Of a DNA stretch of 64,000 nucleotides, positions 1,153 to 63,963 are shown one piece after another. The notes beneath the pieces are model-generated. The model worked only from the letters and a program-made list of their open reading frames with translations, ran no database searches and had not been told where the DNA came from. Made by a program: the position numbers and the translations under genes. This stretch comes from Eledone cirrhosa (taxonomy: Eukaryota): the NCBI GenBank assembly GCA_964016885.1, contig OZ024755.1:8556001-8620000 (forward strand). Direction: 5' to 3'. The first letter of the stretch is position 1. The number at the start of each line of letters is the position of its first letter.

Positions 1153-1352
1153 AACGAGTAGGACCCCGACGGCTGAGCTCAAGCCGTTTCGATGGCTAAT
1201 TCTGGACGCAGAATTAGCCAAAATTAGCCATTGAAACGGCTTGAGCTCAGCGCTCGGGGTCCTACTCGTTCCTATTACCCACTCTACTACCCTAAGTATT
1301 GAGTACTTTGGTGCGTTATGGTCCATCTGGTTCTTTACCACATTTCCTTCGT

Positions 1353-1355: not shown

Positions 1356-1387
<32 letters not shown>

Positions 1388-1392
<5 letters not shown>

Positions 1393-1504
1393 GAAGTGTG
1401 GTAAGGAACCTGGTGGACCATAACGCACCAGAGTAGTCAATACATAGGGTAGTAGAGTGGGTAATAGGAAAATGTTCAAGACCCCGACGGAACATTTTTC
1501 CTAT
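1388..1504 (-). mobile_element. Family H1 copy, short fold-back, tail-to-tail with 1149-1355
   Basis: Reverse tail GGAACCTGGTGGACCATAACGCACCAGAGTAGTCAATAC plus hairpin TAGGAAAATGTTC..GAACATTTTTCCTA. Confidence 0.75.
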
Positions 1505-5960: not shown

Positions 5961-6560
5961 TGTAATATATTCTATAGATTATGAACTAAGCACCACTAAT
6001 CACTAATGATGGGAAAAGAGAGACATAATTTTAAATAAAAAATTAAATAAATGAGTAAAATAGGAATTAGGTTAAAAAAGATAAAAGAAAAGATCGTTAG
6101 GGTTGGGAATGGGGGTGCGGATATTTCATTGTGGAGGTCTGGGCAGGTGAAATTGAAGTACAGGTAAAATAGGTTAATTAAGGGACGTTTAAAGTCAAAA
6201 CGGAAATGACTACTACACAGACAATGGTTGATTATACATCAATCTGTCTGTCTATCTAATCAAAATATGTCTATTTAACTCCTGAAATTACTACAGCCCC
6301 TCTCTCACACTTTCTCTCCCCCCCCCCCTCTTTCTCTCTCTGTCTCACACACCTTCTCCTCCTCCTTCATTTACTAAATTTCTTTCCACTTTTGAAAATC
6401 ATTACACACGCACACTTATATACAGACACACATGTATATATTTGTATTCATTTATTATATATATATATATACATAGTTCAAGATTAAATGAGACAAAGAC
6501 TGGGATACAAAAATGCCTGATTATGTTCAATATGTACATACAGACATGCATATATATATA

Positions 6561-6911
6561 TAGGAAAAAGTATGATCCCGACGGCAGAGCTCAAGGCTAT
6601 TTCTGGACTAAATTAGAATTTTTAGCCTGGTGAATAAATAGCCGAACTTGTCAAGGGGTACTTCCTTATATCGAATTGACAACTATATGGATTGATAACT
6701 ACAATCTCCCCATATAAGGAAGTACCCCTTGAGAAGTTCGGCTATTTATTCACCAGGCTAAAAATTCTAATTTAGTCCAGAAATAGCCGTCGAAACGGCT
6801 TGAGCTCTGCAGTCGGGGTCATACTTTTTTCCTATTTCCCACTCTACTACCCTAAGTATTGAGTACTCTGGTGCGTTATGGTCCATCTGGTTCCTTACCA
6901 TAATTCCTTTG

Positions 6912-6914
<3 letters not shown>
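6561..6914 (+). mobile_element. Family H1, longest copy, ~270-bp fold-back
   Basis: Arms 6561-~6670 and ~6712-6834 are near-perfect inverted repeats, followed by the H1 tail and (TA)n. Confidence 0.85.
6724..6819 (+). ncRNA. Complete but decayed type I hammerhead ribozyme
   Basis: Stem I ACCCC/GGGGT; core TTGAGAA (TTGACAA in the mirror arm, cf. CUGACGA); stem II CGGCTATTT/AAATAGCCG; GAAAC at 6792; stem III; GTC at 6812-6814. Confidence 0.65.
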
Positions 6915-6953
<39 letters not shown>

Positions 6954-7985
6954 TGATGGCCGAATGAATTAACTATGGAGATATAAAAGATGCAGAAGCG
7001 AAAACCAACCAAACAGTGAGTGTGTTCTGTTATTATTTCTGGCAATAGTATTACATATATTCCTCATATATATACACACACACATATAAATATTCATACA
7101 TATATATATATACACACACAAACACATCTCTCGAGGAGAAGGTCACTCTGATATAAAACCTGCGACCAGTTCTAATTTTGGGTAAATGTATTTGATGTTC
7201 AAAGACGGGTATTGGCCCCATGCAAAGCCTTTCCTCACTTCAAACACAGGCATCGCTTGATATATGATTTTTTTTCCGATGCATGGCATTGCTGGCCATA
7301 GGCAAGACCCTAGGACTAAAATGCCACGTCCATGGTGTTCATGGTTAAGTACCAAGCAATGGCATTACTCGAATCCGAATTGCAGCCATAATTATCATCA
7401 TGTACGTATGTATGTATGGGTGTATCTATTTAGGTATTAATGTACATATGGATGAATCGATATATGTATGTATATTATGTATGTGCCTATGTAAATCTAT
7501 CTTCCCATCTCTCCATCTTTAAATATAATATAGCCAATTCTATATACGCCTTGATCCACTTCCAATAAATTCACCATCTTTCCGCTGCTTAATATTATTT
7601 TTTCCATTCCTACAACTCCGTTGTATTGGTTAAAGTGAAGACATAAGGTTGACGATGACGATGGTAAGATGAAATATTGTTGCATGACTATCATAATGAA
7701 TGGTGCATGTTTCCTTCTACATCTGGACACGACACTATATTTTACATGCCTCACTTGACCAACCTCGTTGATATAAGCATCAGCGATTCACTCATAGAGA
7801 GAGATAAAACTAGAGAGAGAGGCGTGTATAGCTTGGGGCTGGCTGGCGAAACACATTAAATGTTGAGCTAAGGATGATTAATGAATATATATAGCTCTTG
7901 GAACCATTCATTAATACTATTATTAATATTTTCTCTCTCTCTCTCTCTCTATAGTATATATATAGTATATATGTATAGTAATAAT

Positions 7986-8172
7986 TATTTCTACTTTTGG
8001 TACAAGGCCAGCAATTATATCAGTGTATTACTGGTACTTTATTTTATCGACCCCGTAAGGATGAAAGGCAAAGTTAACCTCGGCGGGATTTGAACTCAGT
8101 CCGTAAAGGGACGTAACTGTGCTGCAAAGCATGGCACCCGACCCTCTACTGATACTGCCAATTCACCGCCTT
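7986..8172 (-). mobile_element. Full-length tRNA-derived SINE family A with 18-bp TSD
   Basis: B-box GAGTTCAAATCC on the minus strand; TSD TATATGTATAGTAATAAT at 7968-7985 and 8173-8190. Confidence 0.85.
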
Positions 8173-8199
8173 TATATGTATAGTAATAATAATTTTAAA

Positions 8200-34275: not shown

Positions 34276-36644
34276 ATACAGAGAGACAGGGCGGGAGAGA
34301 ATGTATGTGTGTAGGGTGGACAAATGGTTCTCCGTCATTTTCAATAAGTAGGGTCCCAGTTGTTCGATCAAAGGAAAATCCTTTTAATGGAATAAACGTG
34401 TAGGTGGCTGAGTATTTCATTAATGTTACTCTCAGCTAGATTCAGTGTCATACAGTATGGGCTAAGACTGGCCAATTGAATTATAGGTACGGGCAATCCC
34501 ATGGGCTTCCAAACAGTTTCCGCCCACCAAATATCCTACCATGATACTTAGCGGTATCGAACTCGGAAGATAATGATTACAAAGCGAACTGCTTCACCAT
34601 TCAGCAAAGCTGCATCTATACACGTAACACACACACGCCTACACACATTTATGTATGTGGATGTGCGTGTGTGTGAGTATAGACACACCAAAACTATAGA
34701 AACACCACCTCCAATCAGAGACAAACGTGGTAAGTTTCCACCAGGAGATGCAAGTGTTAGATAACATCAGGACTAGAAATATGAACATTAAGAGTTTCAT
34801 AGGTCCGAGATGAGGGTCGTAATTATTTTTACTTTTCACACATACGCACACTCACTCACTCACACACTCACCTGCAGTGTGGGAGGGAGAGGGAAGAGGT
34901 GAAAGGAAATGAGAGAAACGGACACACATACACTCTTTGTTATTAATAGTGATTATATACTTTGAGGTTTCTCCAAAGCTACCGGCTTTTCAACACTCTT
35001 CTGAAAAGGCAGTAGCTTTGGCGAAACAACCTCTAATGTTAAATATATACATATTCCGTTTTTGAATTAGTTTTGTAAGATTTCTCATCTGAAAACGTGT
35101 GTTGAAACAGATATTGTTATAGTGTGTGTGTGGGGTGGGGTGGGTGGGGCTGTGGACTACATCTGCACCAAATATTTCTTCCCTTTGTCATTTTGAAAAC
35201 CTTCCAATAAAAAAATAAAAACTTTCGTCTGATGATTAACTTCAAATAAATTGAATATTTATTTCTAGTCATTTTTTAGTATAGATTTCTCTCTTCTCCA
35301 TCGTGTAGTCTTGCGCTTGCATGCATATTTATGTGTGTGTCTATTTTTGTCGTCGCTAGAAAATATGTAAAAACTTTGACTATAATTTAAATACATACAT
35401 ACTATGACTACTTTCACTCTCGTATGATGACGATCATTAGAATGGATCCTCCGTCGATTTTGACGATGACTACTTCAGTTCCACTTGCACATATTGTCTC
35501 TACCAATAAGCCAAAGAACGATACTGGGTTACTATATTCGATACAAATAGCCGCAAAATTGTTTGTTAGATCACATACTAACACCTGAAAATAATATCAG
35601 AAAGATGTATAGTAAAATATAGTCCAGTATATGTGTAAATTTATCTGATGGTCATGGCTTGAACATCATTGGTCAAAACTCTGCTTAAACATGATACACT
35701 TGGAAAAGCAATATATAAACTTTATTCTTGCCGGACCAGTTCACATAGGGCGGAATCGTTTATTAATATATTGCACCCAGGTTCTGTCTAATTAATGTGA
35801 TTTGACAGCTAGGGCACAATACAACCATACAAGCGGATGGTGGTACATTATTTTGCAAGGACTGTAGCCATGAAATCTTTATTTCAGATGGCACAACAGA
35901 GCCAGCTGATGTGAGGTAGGAAACGATATAAAAACATAATTGACTATGGTCTGTGTTAATTGGCAGTGGCTTGTTAAACTATTTCTTTTTGGTACACATC
36001 AAACAGGATTTGACCAAAATTGTTACCATAAATTCCGACGGAGCTAATAAAGAGCCTCTTGTGTGCCTCACAGCCCACTAGAAGGAGCAGCCAAATATCC
36101 TTCAAAACACGCCTTCTCAGTTCATATCCTCCCGTCTCATAAAAATACATATTGGATAATATTGTCCTAGTCACAATGTTTAAATAAATGACAGGACGAT
36201 GAAAGCTAAAACCCCCTTTAATCATAAGTCAGCTTAACTTAACTAGACGTGACTTGGCTCTAAACAAGACCAACAGCAAAAATCTATACTCTGGGTCTTC
36301 AGATGTCCCTCACATGATTAAATCCTGAATTAAATCCATCTGAAACAGCCCCTGGTTTTATTTTTAAAAAGTGTTCCTTTAAATTCAAATTTTCCATTAA
36401 AGTTTAAGTAATAAATTTGTGTTGATATATTTCCAAACCCCAATTTATGATACAGTTAATTATTTTAACAAACGCATTGAGAATATTTAAACTTTGAAAG
36501 GTAGTCTCCCGAATGTAGATGAATACAATAATCTATAAATAATGGTTGAAAACAATCGGGTAAAGTACTTAAAAACTATTGGGAACATTTAAGATTTTAA
36601 ATAGTTGTATCCCAATGATCGCAACAACTGTCAATCACTATAAA

Positions 36645-36737
36645 TAATTGTTTCTACTTTTGGCACAAGGCCAGCAATTATTCCAGTGTATTACTGGTAC
36701 TTTATTTTATCGATCACGTAAGGATGAAAGGTAAAGT
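36645..36737 (-). mobile_element. SINE family A, 3' fragment
   Basis: TTGTTTCTACTTTTGGCACAAGGCCAGC..GGATGAAAGGTAAAG. Confidence 0.75.
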
Positions 36738-44450: not shown

Positions 44451-44678
44451 CTTGAAGGCGGCCACCCGGTCTAGCAACTGCTAATTTTTGGCCGACTTCT
44501 CGTCCTGGGCATCTCTCTCTGCTTTTCAGACCCTTGGATTGTGTCTACTATATTCCTTTGTTGGATAAATTTCGGAATACCTGATGATGTCACCGGATTT
44601 ATACTGAACCCGGTCATTGGAATGTTCATAGTATAATAAACCTTTAAGAAATTACACCAGTCCAGCCTCCTGTTATTT

Positions 44679-44683
<5 letters not shown>
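44451..44683 (+). mobile_element. (TA)n-flanked insert with a decayed hammerhead
   Basis: CTGATGA at 44581; stem ACCGG/CCGGT; TTGGAATGTT (cf. TCGAAACGTT); AATAAA at 44635. Confidence 0.5.
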
Positions 44684-44718
<35 letters not shown>

Positions 44719-44740
44719 ATGTGTGTGTGTGTGTGCGTTT

Positions 44741-44777
<37 letters not shown>

Positions 44778-44780
<3 letters not shown>

Positions 44781-44958
44781 AATATGGAAATGGCTTCTAC
44801 AGGACTATAACTGTTTCATTCCAAGGAAGTCATCAGGAAAACCTTTCCTGATGAAACAGTTCTAGTCCTGTAGAAGCCATTTCTATATTAAATTTTTATA
44901 CTCTGCTATGTATTGAGTACCTTACTTACTGTGGTTACCCCCGATTGAACCCATGATA
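44778..44958 (+). mobile_element. Family H5 fold-back element between (GT)n and (CA)n
   Basis: Palindrome 44778-44892; minus strand CTGATGA-CTTCCTTGGAAT-GAAAC..GTC; GTATTGAGTAC in the tail. Confidence 0.7.
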
Positions 44959-49445: not shown

Positions 49446-49468
49446 CTTATTATTATTGCCTGTTATAA

Positions 49469-49653
49469 GCGGTGGATTGGCAGTATCGGTAGAGGATCGG
49501 ACTCCATGCTTTGACGCATAGAGTTATGGCCCTTGTCCTTCTGAGTTCAAATCCCGCCGAGGTTAACTTTACCTTTCATCTTTACGGGGTCGATAACATA
49601 AAGTACCAGTAATGTACTGGTTAATTGCTGGCCTTATGCCAAAAGTAGAAACA
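49469..49653 (+). mobile_element. Full-length tRNA-derived SINE family A with 20-bp TSD
   Basis: A-box TGGCAGTATCGG at 49478; B-box GAGTTCAAATCC at 49543; TSD ATTATTATTGCCTGTTATAA at 49449-49468 and 49654-49673. Confidence 0.9.
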
Positions 49654-49674
49654 ATTATTATTGCCTGTTATAAT

Positions 49675-49880: not shown

Positions 49881-50257
49881 TTATTATTATTATTATTATT
49901 GTTGTTGTTGATGTTATAATTATTATTATATTGTGCCTTAATTAGAAACAATTATTATTATTATCATGAATTTTATATCTGTGTTATTGATATTATTAAA
50001 CTAGAAAATTTGTTCTAATGGATATCAAGCCCTTATCTGCAGCCTCTATCATCATCATCATCATCATTACTATTATAATTCAAAAACCATTATTATTATA
50101 GATATTATTTGTATTATTATTATAGTTATTGTTGTTGTTTTCCAGATGATAAGGGTTCATATATCAATGAACCAACAATCGATTTACAAGCGATTACGCT
50201 GTTGTATATAATTCATGATGGGCGAGTGAAAATGTGGGGTATTTTGACTCGACCCTC

Positions 50258-50365
50258 CCGTCGAGGTTAACTTTGCCTTTCATCCTTACTGGATCGATAA
50301 AATAAAGTACCAGTAATGCACTGGGTAAATGCTGGCCTTGTGCCAAAAAGTAGAAACAATTATTA
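50258..50365 (+). mobile_element. SINE family A, 3' part
   Basis: CGAGGTTAACTTTGCCTTTCATCC..GTACCAGTAATGCACTGGG. Confidence 0.75.
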
Positions 50366-51223
50366 GTGGGCACCAACACATGTATGGGGTGGCTTACCCT
50401 AAATAATTTTCACGTTTGATATTATATATTGTGTTAATTATTCTGTATATTTATACAGTTTTCATGTTTATCTAATTCCATCTGTCTATTATATATAGTC
50501 GTTTCCCTTAACCTCATTTTACATAACTATGTTTACACAGATCCATGTGTATTTAAACACATGTGTTTATCATTTTTAGTGTGTGCCATAGACAGACAAT
50601 TATGACTAAAAAAAGAAAGTATGGTTATATTTTTTTCTTATTCCTTTATCATAACAGTAACTATTTGAGTTCATGACAGTTGTTTAGGATATTCCTAGAT
50701 CTATAAATGTCGTTGATAATATTACCTTTGTATATACGATCACTGGATGAAATATGTATATCTGTTTTACTGGTTTCAGTCAATATCTGGCGGCCACACT
50801 GCAGCACTCTCTAGAAAATATTTAGTCAATTAACATGAGTATATTTTGTTTTAATATGTTGCAAGTCTGATTTATCTTCCATCGATCTGTTTAGTCGAGT
50901 CACTAGGCTAAGGTATATACATTATGAGGTCAAATCTTACCCAAGTTGATTTTTGCTTTCTTCCTTGTAAACCTAAGTACCAGTGAAATGTTTTGATCGA
51001 TCTATTTCATTCTACCCGTAGCTCCAATTTCAAATCCATGTCCAAAACAGTTATTTACCTATCAATAAATAAATATTATTGTGTATCTATATCCAATATA
51101 TTAGACCTTCACTCAATCACGTTTAATGTGTTAAGCAAATACATAAAACAAGAACACACACATATATTTATATAATCCATACATACATGCATACATACTT
51201 ATATATATAACAGCACACATTCC

Positions 51224-51650: not shown

Positions 51651-51653
<3 letters not shown>

Positions 51654-51751
51654 CGAAGGAAATGTGGTACGGAACCAGATGGACCATAACGCACCAAAGT
51701 ACTCAATACTTAGGGGAGTAGAGTGAGTAATAGGAACGGGTCCTACCCCTT

Positions 51752-51755
<4 letters not shown>
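51651..51755 (-). mobile_element. Family H1 copy with a 25-bp fold-back
   Basis: Reverse H1 tail plus TAGGAACGGGTCCTACCCCTTCCTA; TA arrays on both sides. Confidence 0.8.
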
Positions 51756-51798
<43 letters not shown>

Positions 51799-55874: not shown

Positions 55875-55976
55875 TTGCCTTTCATCCTTCCGGGGTCGAT
55901 AGAATAAAGTACCAGTAATGCACTGGGTAATTGCTGGCCTTGTGCCAAAAGTAGAAACAATTATTATTATTATTAT

Positions 55977-56030
<54 letters not shown>

Positions 56031-56145
56031 GAGTTCAAATCCCGCCGAGGTTGACTTTGCTTTCCATCCTTACGGGGTCGATAAAATAAAGTACCAGTAA
56101 TGCACTGGGTATTTGCTGGCCTCGTGCCTAAATTAGAAACAATTA
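55875..56145 (+). mobile_element. Two tandem SINE family A 3' parts separated by (ATT)n(TA)n
   Basis: 55875-55962 and 56028-56145 share GTACCAGTAATGCACTGGGTA. Confidence 0.8.
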
Positions 56146-56244
56146 TTATTATTATTATTATTACTATATATATATATATATGCATACACACACACTGTCA
56201 CACACACAAACACAAACACACGCGAACGCGCTCCCAAAACTTAC

Positions 56245-58379: not shown

Positions 58380-58585
58380 GATTTCTAGTATAGGCACAAG
58401 GCCAGTAATTTTGGGGGAGGGGAAAGTCGATTAAATCGACCCCAGTGCGTGACTGGTGCTTTATTTTATCGACCCCGTAAGGATGAAAGGTAAAGTAATC
58501 TCGGCGGGATTTGAACTCAGACCATAAAGGGCCGTAACTCTTTGCTGCAAAGCATGGCCTCAGACCCTCTACCAATACTGCCAAT
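58380..58585 (-). mobile_element. Near-full SINE family A, long-tail variant
   Basis: GGCACAAGGCCAG..GTCGATTAAATCGACCCCAGT..GGCGGGATTTGAACTCAG. Confidence 0.85.
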
Positions 58586-59204: not shown

Positions 59205-59517
59205 ATATTTCGTTTCTGAATTTGTTTAGCAAGATTCTTTATCTGAAATCGTGTGAACACACAGAAACAAAATGGCGTAGGACAGAACAAAGGAGAGGCA
59301 CAGAAACAAAGAAAATAATCCCCAGTCACTGAAGAGGTCACAGAGTGTGTGACGAAAGGACTATGACTATATATAAACAACTATCTGGTTGTGGAACCAA
59401 CCAACCAACCAGAAATTTATAAATTTATAAATTCGTAAATTTATAAATATATAATAAATTGAAGTGAAGCAACTGGTGCATGTGTTTCTTATTGGCAACA
59501 TGACCCTCCCAAAGTAT

Positions 59518-59525
<8 letters not shown>
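59205..59525 (+). mobile_element. Family H2 copy with its 3'-terminal ~50 bp inverted at the 5' side
   Basis: 59205-59255 is in the same orientation as 20773-20820, while 59256-59525 is the reverse complement of 20830-21090. Confidence 0.8.
59324..59368 (+). ncRNA. Minimal type I hammerhead ribozyme
   Basis: Stem I AGTCA/TGACT; CTGAAGA; stem II GTCACA/TGTGAC; GAAAG-GA-CTA cleavage triplet. Confidence 0.85.
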
Positions 59526-60417: not shown

Positions 60418-60420
<3 letters not shown>

Positions 60421-60538
60421 CGAAGTAGTTGTGTTAAGGAACCAGATGGACGATAACGCACCAGAGTACTCAATCCATTTCGACAGAAATAGCCATCGAA
60501 ACGGCTTAAGCTCTGCCAACGGGGTCATACATTTTTTC
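60418..60538 (-). mobile_element. Family H1 copy, internally deleted
   Basis: Reverse tail plus inverted arm carrying GAAACGGCTTAAGCTCTGCC-AAC-GGGGT (cleavage triplet mutated). Confidence 0.75.
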
Positions 60539-60559
60539 AGACATATATATAGTGTTATG

Positions 60560-61089
60560 CTTAGGGAGGGTCATGTTGCCAATAAGAAACACACGCACCA
60601 GTTGTTTCACTTCAATTTATTATAAATTAAATTTATAAATTTAGGAATTTATAAATTTCCGGTTGCTTGGTTGGTTCCACAACCAGACGATTGTTCATAT
60701 ATTGTCAATGTTCTTTCGTCACACATTCTGTGACCTCTTCAGTGACTGGGGATTCTTTTCTTTGTTTTTGTGCCTCTCCTTTGTTCTGTCCTAAGCCATC
60801 TTGTTTTTGTGTGTGTTGGGTGCTTAGTTTGCGCATGTGTTACATCCGAGTGTCAGTGTGTGTTTATATTTGTTTATTTATTTGTTTATCTACATGTTAC
60901 TGGTTGGTTGTTTGTTCTATGTGTGTGTGTGTTTTCATTTTGTCCTTAATTGTACGTTGTGATGTTAATTGAAGTGAAACAACTGGTGCGTGTGTTTCTT
61001 ATTGCCAGCATGACTCTCCCAAAGGATAACAATATCGGTTTCAACACACGTTTTCAGATAAAGAATCTTGCTAAACAAATTCAGAAACG

Positions 61090-61090
<1 letters not shown>
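60560..61090 (-). mobile_element. Family H2 copy (decayed hammerhead 60703-60747) with an inverted terminal segment at 60967-61090
   Basis: TCTTTCGTCACACATTCTGTGACCTCTTCAGTGACT; 60560-60618 is the mirror image of 60967-61022. Confidence 0.8.
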
Positions 61091-61154
<64 letters not shown>

Positions 61155-63723: not shown

Positions 63724-63911
63724 TAACAAAGAAGGTGTGGTAAGATACCACGTGGGCCATAACGCAACAGAGTACTCAATACTTAGGGTAGTAGAGTGGG
63801 TAATAGGAAAAGAGTCTGGACCCCTACGGCTGAGCTCCAGCCGTTTCGACAGTTAGATTTGAACAGCTGTCAAAACGGCCGGTGCTCAGATCTCGGGGTC
63901 CTGACCCTTTT

Positions 63912-63915
<4 letters not shown>
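63724..63915 (-). mobile_element. Family H1 copy with a ~110-bp fold-back
   Basis: Reverse tail plus palindrome 63804-63915, in TA context. Confidence 0.8.
63820..63847 (-). ncRNA. Hammerhead 3' half with a GUA triplet
   Basis: GAAAC-GGC-UGGAGCUCA-GCC-GUA-GGGGU. Confidence 0.65.

Positions 63916-63963
<48 letters not shown>

Follow-up and report, generated by a model that had tools for sequence, protein, structure and literature searches.

An enlarged type I hammerhead motif in a (TA)n-flanked repeat of Eledone cirrhosa and its likely affiliation with Penelope-like elements

Can a hammerhead motif residing in a repeat between (TA)n runs of the Eledone cirrhosa genome be expected to cleave its own RNA as a single molecule, and to which kind of element does it belong? 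The question is posed by an insertion at positions 6561-6914 of a 64,000-nt stretch of contig OZ024755.1 (assembly GCA_964016885.1, positions 8,556,001 to 8,620,000), in the following referred to as the window. Hammerheads of animal Penelope-like elements (PLEs) have so far been minimal and weak, and they are thought to depend on dimers or on protein. An abundant family with a helix III predicted to be competent in the monomer, as is the case for the family termed H1 here, makes it possible to examine cleanly whether cleavage is of importance. The window is AT-rich and laden with microsatellites, and Pfam recognized no gene in 150 of its 293 candidate frames. About 10 kb (18100-27800) consist of nearly pure TA/TATG-type microsatellite with a GC content of 10-17%.

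Anatomy of the motif and its copies in the window

Upon sequence inspection, all parts of a type I hammerhead are found on the plus strand at 6716-6830. The 5' strand of stem I (6716-6728) ends with ACCCC (6724-6728), which provides the five core-proximal base pairs, and is followed by the core U3 U4 G5 A6 N7 A8 A9 (TTGAGAA, 6729-6735), a helix II domain of 56 nt (6736-6791) closed by G6736-C6791 (G10.1-C11.1), the G12 A13 A14 A15.1 stretch (6792-6795, within GAAAC at 6792-6796), a helix III arm of 19 nt (6795-6813) with 5-6 bp and a loop of 7-9 nt, the GUC triplet (GTC, 6812-6814) and the 3' strand of stem I (6815-6830), which begins with GGGGT (6815-6819). In the hammerhead numbering of PMC4209133, the cut is predicted 3' of C6814. 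Element sequence also precedes the hammerhead (6692-6715), with reads of all four runs introduced below aligning from about 6690-6692, and an optional tail of about 80 nt follows it (6835-6914); in many genomic copies the tail is missing, and the sequence passes into (TA)n near 6834. The motif given in a preliminary description of the locus (ACCCC, TTGA(G/C)AA, GAAAC, GUC and GGGGU) is confirmed at 6724-6819, its alternative core TTGACAA being situated on the minus strand at 6648-6654.

Positions 6729-6735, 6792-6795 and 6813-6814 fit the core, the A15.1-U16.1 pair and H17 of type I hammerheads, and three helices surround the core with helix I open, helix III being broken in the 6561-6914 copy. 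Beyond a 3-nt bulge, stem I continues with eight more pairs, two of which are G-U, and its four G-C pairs attain pair probabilities of 0.98-0.99 in the computed fold. Helix II is made up of an outer stem (6739-6747/6781-6789) and an inner hairpin (6756-6762/6771-6777). Pair probabilities of stems I and II amount to 0.6-0.99, closing pairs excepted, and the hammerhead region folds better than its shuffles (z -2.64). A contact between loops I and II is not recognizable in H1. Among 20000 shuffles of the 109 nt located upstream, 51 produced the core together with G10.1 and a stem I of at least 4 bp, and a 28-mer representing the 3' half was present at six places in the window with up to 6 substitutions and at none in each of 20 shuffles; a seventh, more decayed 3' half resides at 63873. 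These controls show that the motif is not due to chance, and H1 conforms to the definition of a type I hammerhead in both sequence and structure.

A relaxed type I scan of the window found H1 and a second family, H2, while the strict scan (perfect helix II, CUGANGA within one mismatch) returned no match. None of the Rfam hammerhead families matched H1 at E values up to 10, which is a weak test here since the ordinary hammerhead of H2 is also without a match. Rfam matches to the window as a whole were rejected: among the 150 listed of 503, all lie below the gathering score and almost all are miRNA models on inverted repeats or TA tracts.

Seven H1 insertions of 99-354 nt reside in the window. 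All seven are flanked by (TA)n of at least 9 nt on both sides and, as judged by eye, all seven contain an inverted piece, which measures only 9-19 nt in three of them. The insertion at 6561-6914, bounded by (TA)n runs at about 6550-6562 and 6913-6950, is composed of an inverted, truncated 5' arm (6561-6670, minus strand, core UUGACAA at 6648-6654), a forward arm and the tail. No other insertion contains the 5' core, which is present here once in each arm of a single inverted repeat, and the remaining core-region copies in the window are 3' halves. The four copies from which the motif had originally been reconstructed therefore hold for the 3' half, which does recur, and not for the 5' core. 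Two 3' halves are arranged head to head at 1149-1357, including an intact stem III with GUC (1163-1190, minus strand), and a further two make up the insertion at 63724-63916, where the intact stem III is combined with GUA (63820-63847, minus strand). Tail and stem I 3' strand are found at 1387-1504 (minus strand), the tail only at 30174-30272 (plus strand) and the tail at 51651-51757 (minus strand), the latter two each with a short inverted piece, and at 60418-60540 a partial tail (minus strand) is joined to a decayed 3' half (plus strand).

The full stem III reconstructed for the family is broken in the copy at 6561-6914. G6797 is placed opposite A6811, and the left arm (6561-6670), which retains C at the equivalent of 6811, has suffered an 11-nt deletion that takes out GAAA. 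Direct energy evaluation puts the hammerhead fold of this copy 7 kcal/mol above the minimum-energy fold, and one long hairpin of -203 kcal/mol is predicted when 6561-6914 is transcribed as a whole. With helix III disrupted and both arms expected to pair with each other in the long hairpin, this copy is likely inactive. A competing hairpin at 6787-6798 (CCGUC/GAAA/CGG region) can sequester GAAA, and it is almost exactly this hairpin that the 11-nt deletion removes from the left arm.

Core consensus of the family

Evidence on the family was gathered from four out of 15 public runs, aligned to 6672-6914 (22585, 19792, 43 and 7 records), namely X13, consisting of raw DNA reads, and X1, consisting of contigs, both from organism A, X4 from organism B and X8 from organism E. 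X1 may be near the source of the window itself. Read depth at the core is only 3-11% of that of the 3' half, and with so few 5' halves aligning, subfamilies with other cores could be unseen. Variant figures refer to the variants listed, beyond which 30 further ones exist, among them one A>G in X13; that the variant table is incomplete is evident from G6789A, which is present in three of five window halves and yet unlisted for X1.

Position 6729 is T in the majority of records, with 80% in X13, 87% in X1, 96% in X4 and all of the listed depth in X8, such that U3 accounts for 80-100% of the aligned depth across the four runs. C at this position occurs in 139 of 692 reads in X13, at 12.7% of the depth in X1 and at 4% in X4, and is not listed for X8. 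A6734G, corresponding to G8, is not among the variants listed for the four runs. For X1 and X8, A>G changes reaching 5% are not listed, the single one in X4 is at 6770, and the A>G that X13 has beyond the variants listed could be 6734. At N7, the alleles G, A and C coexist (A 40% and C 27% in X1; A 25% and C 35% in X13). The majority core of the family is UUGANAA, a known U3-A8 covariant. Natural covariation from C3-G8 to U3-A8, active in vitro, has been described by Perreault et al. (PMC3088659), and Cervera and De la Pena noted about 1300 U3-A8 motifs in Cercyon PLEs of Schistosoma (PMC4209133). The preliminary description had named CUGACGA as the ancestral core and proposed the consensus at 6729-6735 as a check; this consensus is UUGANAA and not CUGANGA.

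Across the four runs, which stem from three organisms, U3 prevails and A8 shows next to no variation, in combination with all three N7 alleles, and we consider it improbable that the canonical CUGACGA is the working core of the family and UUGANAA its product of decay. It is true that C3-G8 is the usual state among the motifs in Fig. S3 of PMC4209133 (53 of 56, U3-A8 being present in 2 of 56), that C3 persists at 4-20% in three runs, and that the aligning 5' half is available for only 3-11% of the 3' halves. C7-G8 moreover constitutes a CpG, which makes a path from C3-G8 via C3-A8 to U3-A8 plausible. In X1, however, C>T changes are listed at four places (6708, 6751, 6852 and 6868) and G>A at one (6733), none of which falls on a CpG of the ribozyme. 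The lack of listed CpG changes elsewhere in the motif argues against CpG decay, which was rejected as the origin of U3-A8. In the three runs with the C3 minority, C3 is not accompanied by a listed G8, and neither does the X4 contig carrying C3 have G8. C3 combined with A8 is a mismatch and should harm activity; judging from mutants with either C3G or G8C as their only change (PMC11167929), such a ribozyme should be crippled. The C3 minority may be a relic of the path from C3-G8 to U3-A8, and a deeper C3-G8 ancestor of H1 is possible.

High-frequency variants sit at N7, in loops and at pair-keeping positions, with T6737A (9-51% in three runs) giving helix II an extra pair, and none at 5% or more is listed at core positions 4-6, 8 and 12-17. 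This distribution speaks against the idea that the motif is a non-catalytic relic in a family spreading without cleavage, be it as a hitch-hiker or as a signal for protein binding or for reverse transcriptase. We grant this idea a low probability, even though insertion of an anole PLE in vitro was unimpaired by hammerhead mutants and used uncut RNA as the main template (PMC11167929), and eight of nine Xenopus retrozyme dimers stayed uncleaved (bioRxiv 10.64898/2026.07.22.740005). Within H1 itself, the idea is likewise favored by most copies being without the 5' half and spanning the cut site, and by a minority tolerating the combination of C3 and A8.

Organism B features a subfamily with several base changes in helix II (X4, 6749-6762); by eye, its inner hairpin pairs in a shifted register and one outer pair is mismatched.

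Helix III and its palindromic loop

In the family, position 6811 is occupied by C in 84-85% and by T in 14-15% of cases (X13, X1). Either base pairs with G6797, and about 99% of the aligned reads are paired at 6811. T6808A, present at 36-60%, gives helix III its sixth pair. In the window, the intact halves at 1169-1187 and 63826-63844 (both minus strand) have six of six helix III pairs and about -7 kcal/mol, with the four G-C pairs of helix III in the intact half at pair probabilities of 0.98-0.99. Observed pairing and computed energies together support a helix III that is stable in the family as a monomer. The hammerhead with a stable stem III proposed for this locus is thus retained at the level of the family, the reads restoring the 6797-6811 pair, and intact stems with GUC and GUA at 1163-1190 and 63820-63847 were correctly reported. 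Pairing across copies, which had been named as a further touchstone, is restored by the family reads and broken at 6561-6914; in the decayed copies of the window 66.7% of the helix III cells are paired. None of the six helix III pairs shows a two-sided change in ten decayed, partly misaligned window rows, and helix changes in the family reads are one-sided only and pair-keeping.

The loop of helix III contains the palindromic hexamer GAGCUC (6802-6807 on the plus strand of the 6561-6914 insertion), which is present in five of the seven loop-bearing halves of the window, absent at 60498 and 63873 (both plus strand), and also found in a loose-end subfamily with CG before the hexamer (1070 reads at 6823). 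The octamer UGAGCUCA occurs in two of the seven (1163, minus strand; 1233, plus strand) and was rejected as a conserved palindrome, so that the loop palindrome of the preliminary description persists as a hexamer and not as an octamer.

It is conceivable that helix III serves mainly as a kissing loop, in which two RNAs would join through GAGCUC and then pair over 18 bp, with cleavage or reverse transcription being dependent on this dimer. The helix III arm is a perfect palindrome save for one base, the hexamer is kept while its flanks vary (UU, UG or CG; A or U), and a PLE protein is predicted to be dimeric (PMC11167929). A loop of nine nt with a central hexamer (2 + 6 + 1) is also the layout of the HIV-1 DIS, a structural analogy with no claim of homology, in which the 6-nt palindrome can be extended to a duplex (PMC4066764). 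The DIS, however, requires its flanks of three stabilizing purines (PMC4066764), whereas the 5' flanks in H1 are mostly pyrimidines (UU/UG/CG, with A/U on the other side) and the loop often has only 7 nt. The computed energies are divided: for the first intact arm the homodimer advantage is -16.5 kcal/mol, a strength attained by 7 of 1000 shuffled loops (-6.5 +/- 3.3 kcal/mol), whereas the second, at -9.1 kcal/mol, does no better than shuffled loops (264 of 1000 as strong). A hexamer palindrome furthermore turns up in 11% of loop shuffles, it is missing from two of the seven window halves, and a palindromic helix III is a general trait of animal hammerheads (PMC4209133, PMC3088659, PMC7229834, PMC6155905). 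A dimer-dependent role of helix III appears rather unlikely to us.

We are similarly skeptical about a combination of both functions, in which H1 would have converted a weak, dimer-only palindromic helix III to a hairpin stable by itself and topped by a kissing loop resembling the DIS, being active as a monomer and providing an RNA dimerization signal as well. If so, the same arm would pair two templates and could explain the head-to-head double insertions that such elements typically show, and the long helix II would set the site at which reverse transcription folds back. Concerning the pairing of monomer cleavage with dimerization envisaged in the preliminary description, monomer cleavage is reasonable by analogy, while a computed dimer advantage over shuffles is seen in only one of the two intact copies.

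Relation to Penelope-like elements and proposed mode of propagation

The architecture of its copies makes it likely that H1 represents the terminal repeat at the 3' end (pLTR) of a PLE that targets (TA)n. Pfam revealed neither reverse transcriptase nor GIY-YIG in the 150 longer of the 293 candidate frames of the window (weak matches below the cut-off in 6 of the 150 frames, none to reverse transcriptase or endonuclease), and the assignment thus rests on anatomy. H1 insertions feature an inverted, 5'-truncated copy alongside and an optional tail with two 3' ends. Inverted 5'-truncated copies, a tail of 30-40 bp and a bias for (TA)n are PLE traits according to Craig et al. 2021 (PMC8557442), and Frangione et al. 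traced the PLE tail to two start sites of reverse transcription. By eye, the loose ends that precede 6692 translate to C-(V/L)-Y-N-K-F-stop, the stop being TGA for X1 and TAA for X4, as would fit a reading frame that terminates about 50 nt before the core.

Within the tail, an ATG opens a short frame at 6878-6913 (M-V-H-L-V-P-Y-H...), in which three family variants (6886, 6887 and 6901) leave the amino acid unchanged and a fourth (6903) does not; the ATG at 6878 is kept in four of six correctly framed tail copies and may be where the reading frame of the element begins.

Naiad/Neptune PLEs share (TA)n targets, 5' truncation, the inverted 5' copy and the optional tail with H1, but the Naiads are described in PMC8557442 as being without canonical hammerheads, and the published tail comprises 30-40 nt as opposed to about 80 nt in H1. 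Six H1 DNA motifs had no match in the consensus file of PMC8557442, in which exact words were sought and line breaks can hide a match, and an assignment of H1 to the Naiads was not adopted on this basis. Exact-pattern scans of viral, metagenome and prokaryote genome contigs likewise yielded no H1 match in any of the three. The core search of PMC8557442 permitted 7-17 nt between the core halves. A helix II domain of 56 nt and a U3-A8 core would slip past such published descriptors, and PLE families regarded as hammerhead-less may therefore hide forms of this kind.

With the pLTR hammerheads of metazoan PLEs, H1 has in common the type I topology, the position near the 3' end of the element, G10.1-C11.1 and a palindromic helix III, and the copies of these elements are also mostly solitary and truncated, with pairs on opposite strands (PMC4209133). 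The U3-A8 core is shared with the Cercyon hammerheads of Schistosoma mansoni, and "small palindromic helix III" variants are found in Aedes, Drosophila, shrimp and Saccoglossus (PMC4209133). In H1, however, the helix III arm has 19 nt and the helix II domain 56 nt compared to at most 10 and at most 23 nt in the 56 animal motifs of Fig. S3 in PMC4209133 (counted by eye), there is no extra base between A9 and G10.1, stem I is long and bulged, and the structure is predicted to be stable as a monomer. The definition of a minimal hammerhead, with helix III absent or small, an extra base between A9 and G10.1 and a helix II of 7-8 bp, does not apply. The contrast with typical minimal PLE hammerheads drawn earlier consequently stands in these respects and not for the palindromic helix III, which is the published norm in animals. 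The same palindrome of helix III and loop is seen in the double hammerheads of the newt/axolotl satellite, ASBVd and Aedes (PMC7229834; PMC3088659 Fig. S8), though these form a weak monomer helix of 1-3 bp and occur in tandem copies, in contrast to the strong helix and inverted copies of H1. U3-A8 core and palindromic helix III have thus already been published and it is the size of helix III that is new; in H1, a ribozyme type already known from retroelements is present in an enlarged form and in high abundance. A description of the family was not found in the literature searched, although subscription papers, repeat libraries and bioRxiv supplements could contain one, and the accessible text of PMC13282606 does not mention hammerheads.

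Fungal and protist PLE hammerheads such as that of Serpula lacrymans resemble H1 in being of type I and in having a large helix III; their helices I and II vary in size and show no recognizable tertiary contact (PMC4209133). The Serpula ribozyme serves as the precedent for cleavage of the monomer, with a kobs of 1.97 per min in 10 mM Mg2+ (PMC4209133). By analogy with these ribozymes, intact H1 copies would likely cleave as monomers, and with a helix III stable on its own (about -7 kcal/mol) no partner ribozyme would be needed. The fungal and protist elements are endonuclease-less and telomere-associated (PMC4209133), whereas H1 is interspersed in (TA)n and features U3-A8 and a palindromic loop. 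From insertion architecture, predicted folding and the fungal precedent, we regard it as fairly probable that H1 is a PLE pLTR whose intact sources would self-cleave after GUC, each RNA molecule on its own.

The H1 copies would have been made by an element with reverse transcriptase and endonuclease located elsewhere in the genome, and the tandem precursor RNA of intact source elements would be cut into units after GUC by the pLTR hammerhead. Within the window, tandem or partial-tandem pLTRs do not occur, and all H1 copies are solitary or inverted; head-to-tail complete hammerheads, which characterize non-LTR retrozymes (bioRxiv 10.64898/2026.07.22.740005), are not found among them. Reverse transcription would begin either near 6834 or near 6914, the two alternative 3' ends of H1 copies; loose ends at 6825 (1927 reads) and 6826 (989 reads) pass via TTCCTA into (TA)n. 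On reaching helix II it would usually stall or fold back within the 3' strand and give rise to 3' halves arranged head to head. Opposite-strand joints of genomic copies cluster at 6773-6780 in this strand, depth drops about twelvefold from 6790 to 6765 and 922 molecules end at 6769, which suggests stalling of reverse transcriptase or fold-back at the helix II structure. A hairpin at 1188-1217 was considered as a natural helix II and rejected, as it is an inversion junction at the same place as the joints 6775/6778-6779. Molecule ends do not pile up at the cut site 6814/6815 in the reads and the inserted copies span it, which points to templates of uncut or re-ligated RNA. The palindrome would represent an inherited, lengthened helix III of the dimer type.

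Further repeats accompany H1 in the window. The H2 family carries an ordinary minimal hammerhead of the PLE type, with CUGAAGA, an extra base after A9, a helix II of 6-7 bp and a helix III of 1 bp. Its motifs at 59329-59363 (plus strand), 20997-21031 and 60708-60742 (both minus strand) reside in elements at about 59257-59525, 20760-21094 and 60543-61106, which are likewise arranged with inverted pieces. CUGANGA words beside hairpins at 44581-44900, 45153, 45260, 45875 and 38947, none of which passed the relaxed type I scan, are possibly decayed ends of further families; an inverted pair is found at 44830-44854. Another interspersed repeat of SINE-like size (about 100-200 nt, 85-92% identity) is present in at least nine copies, located at 7979-8176, 28029-28183, 29215-29334, 36643-36737, 49464-49663, 50256-50368, 55875-55968, 56028-56150 and 58441-58585.
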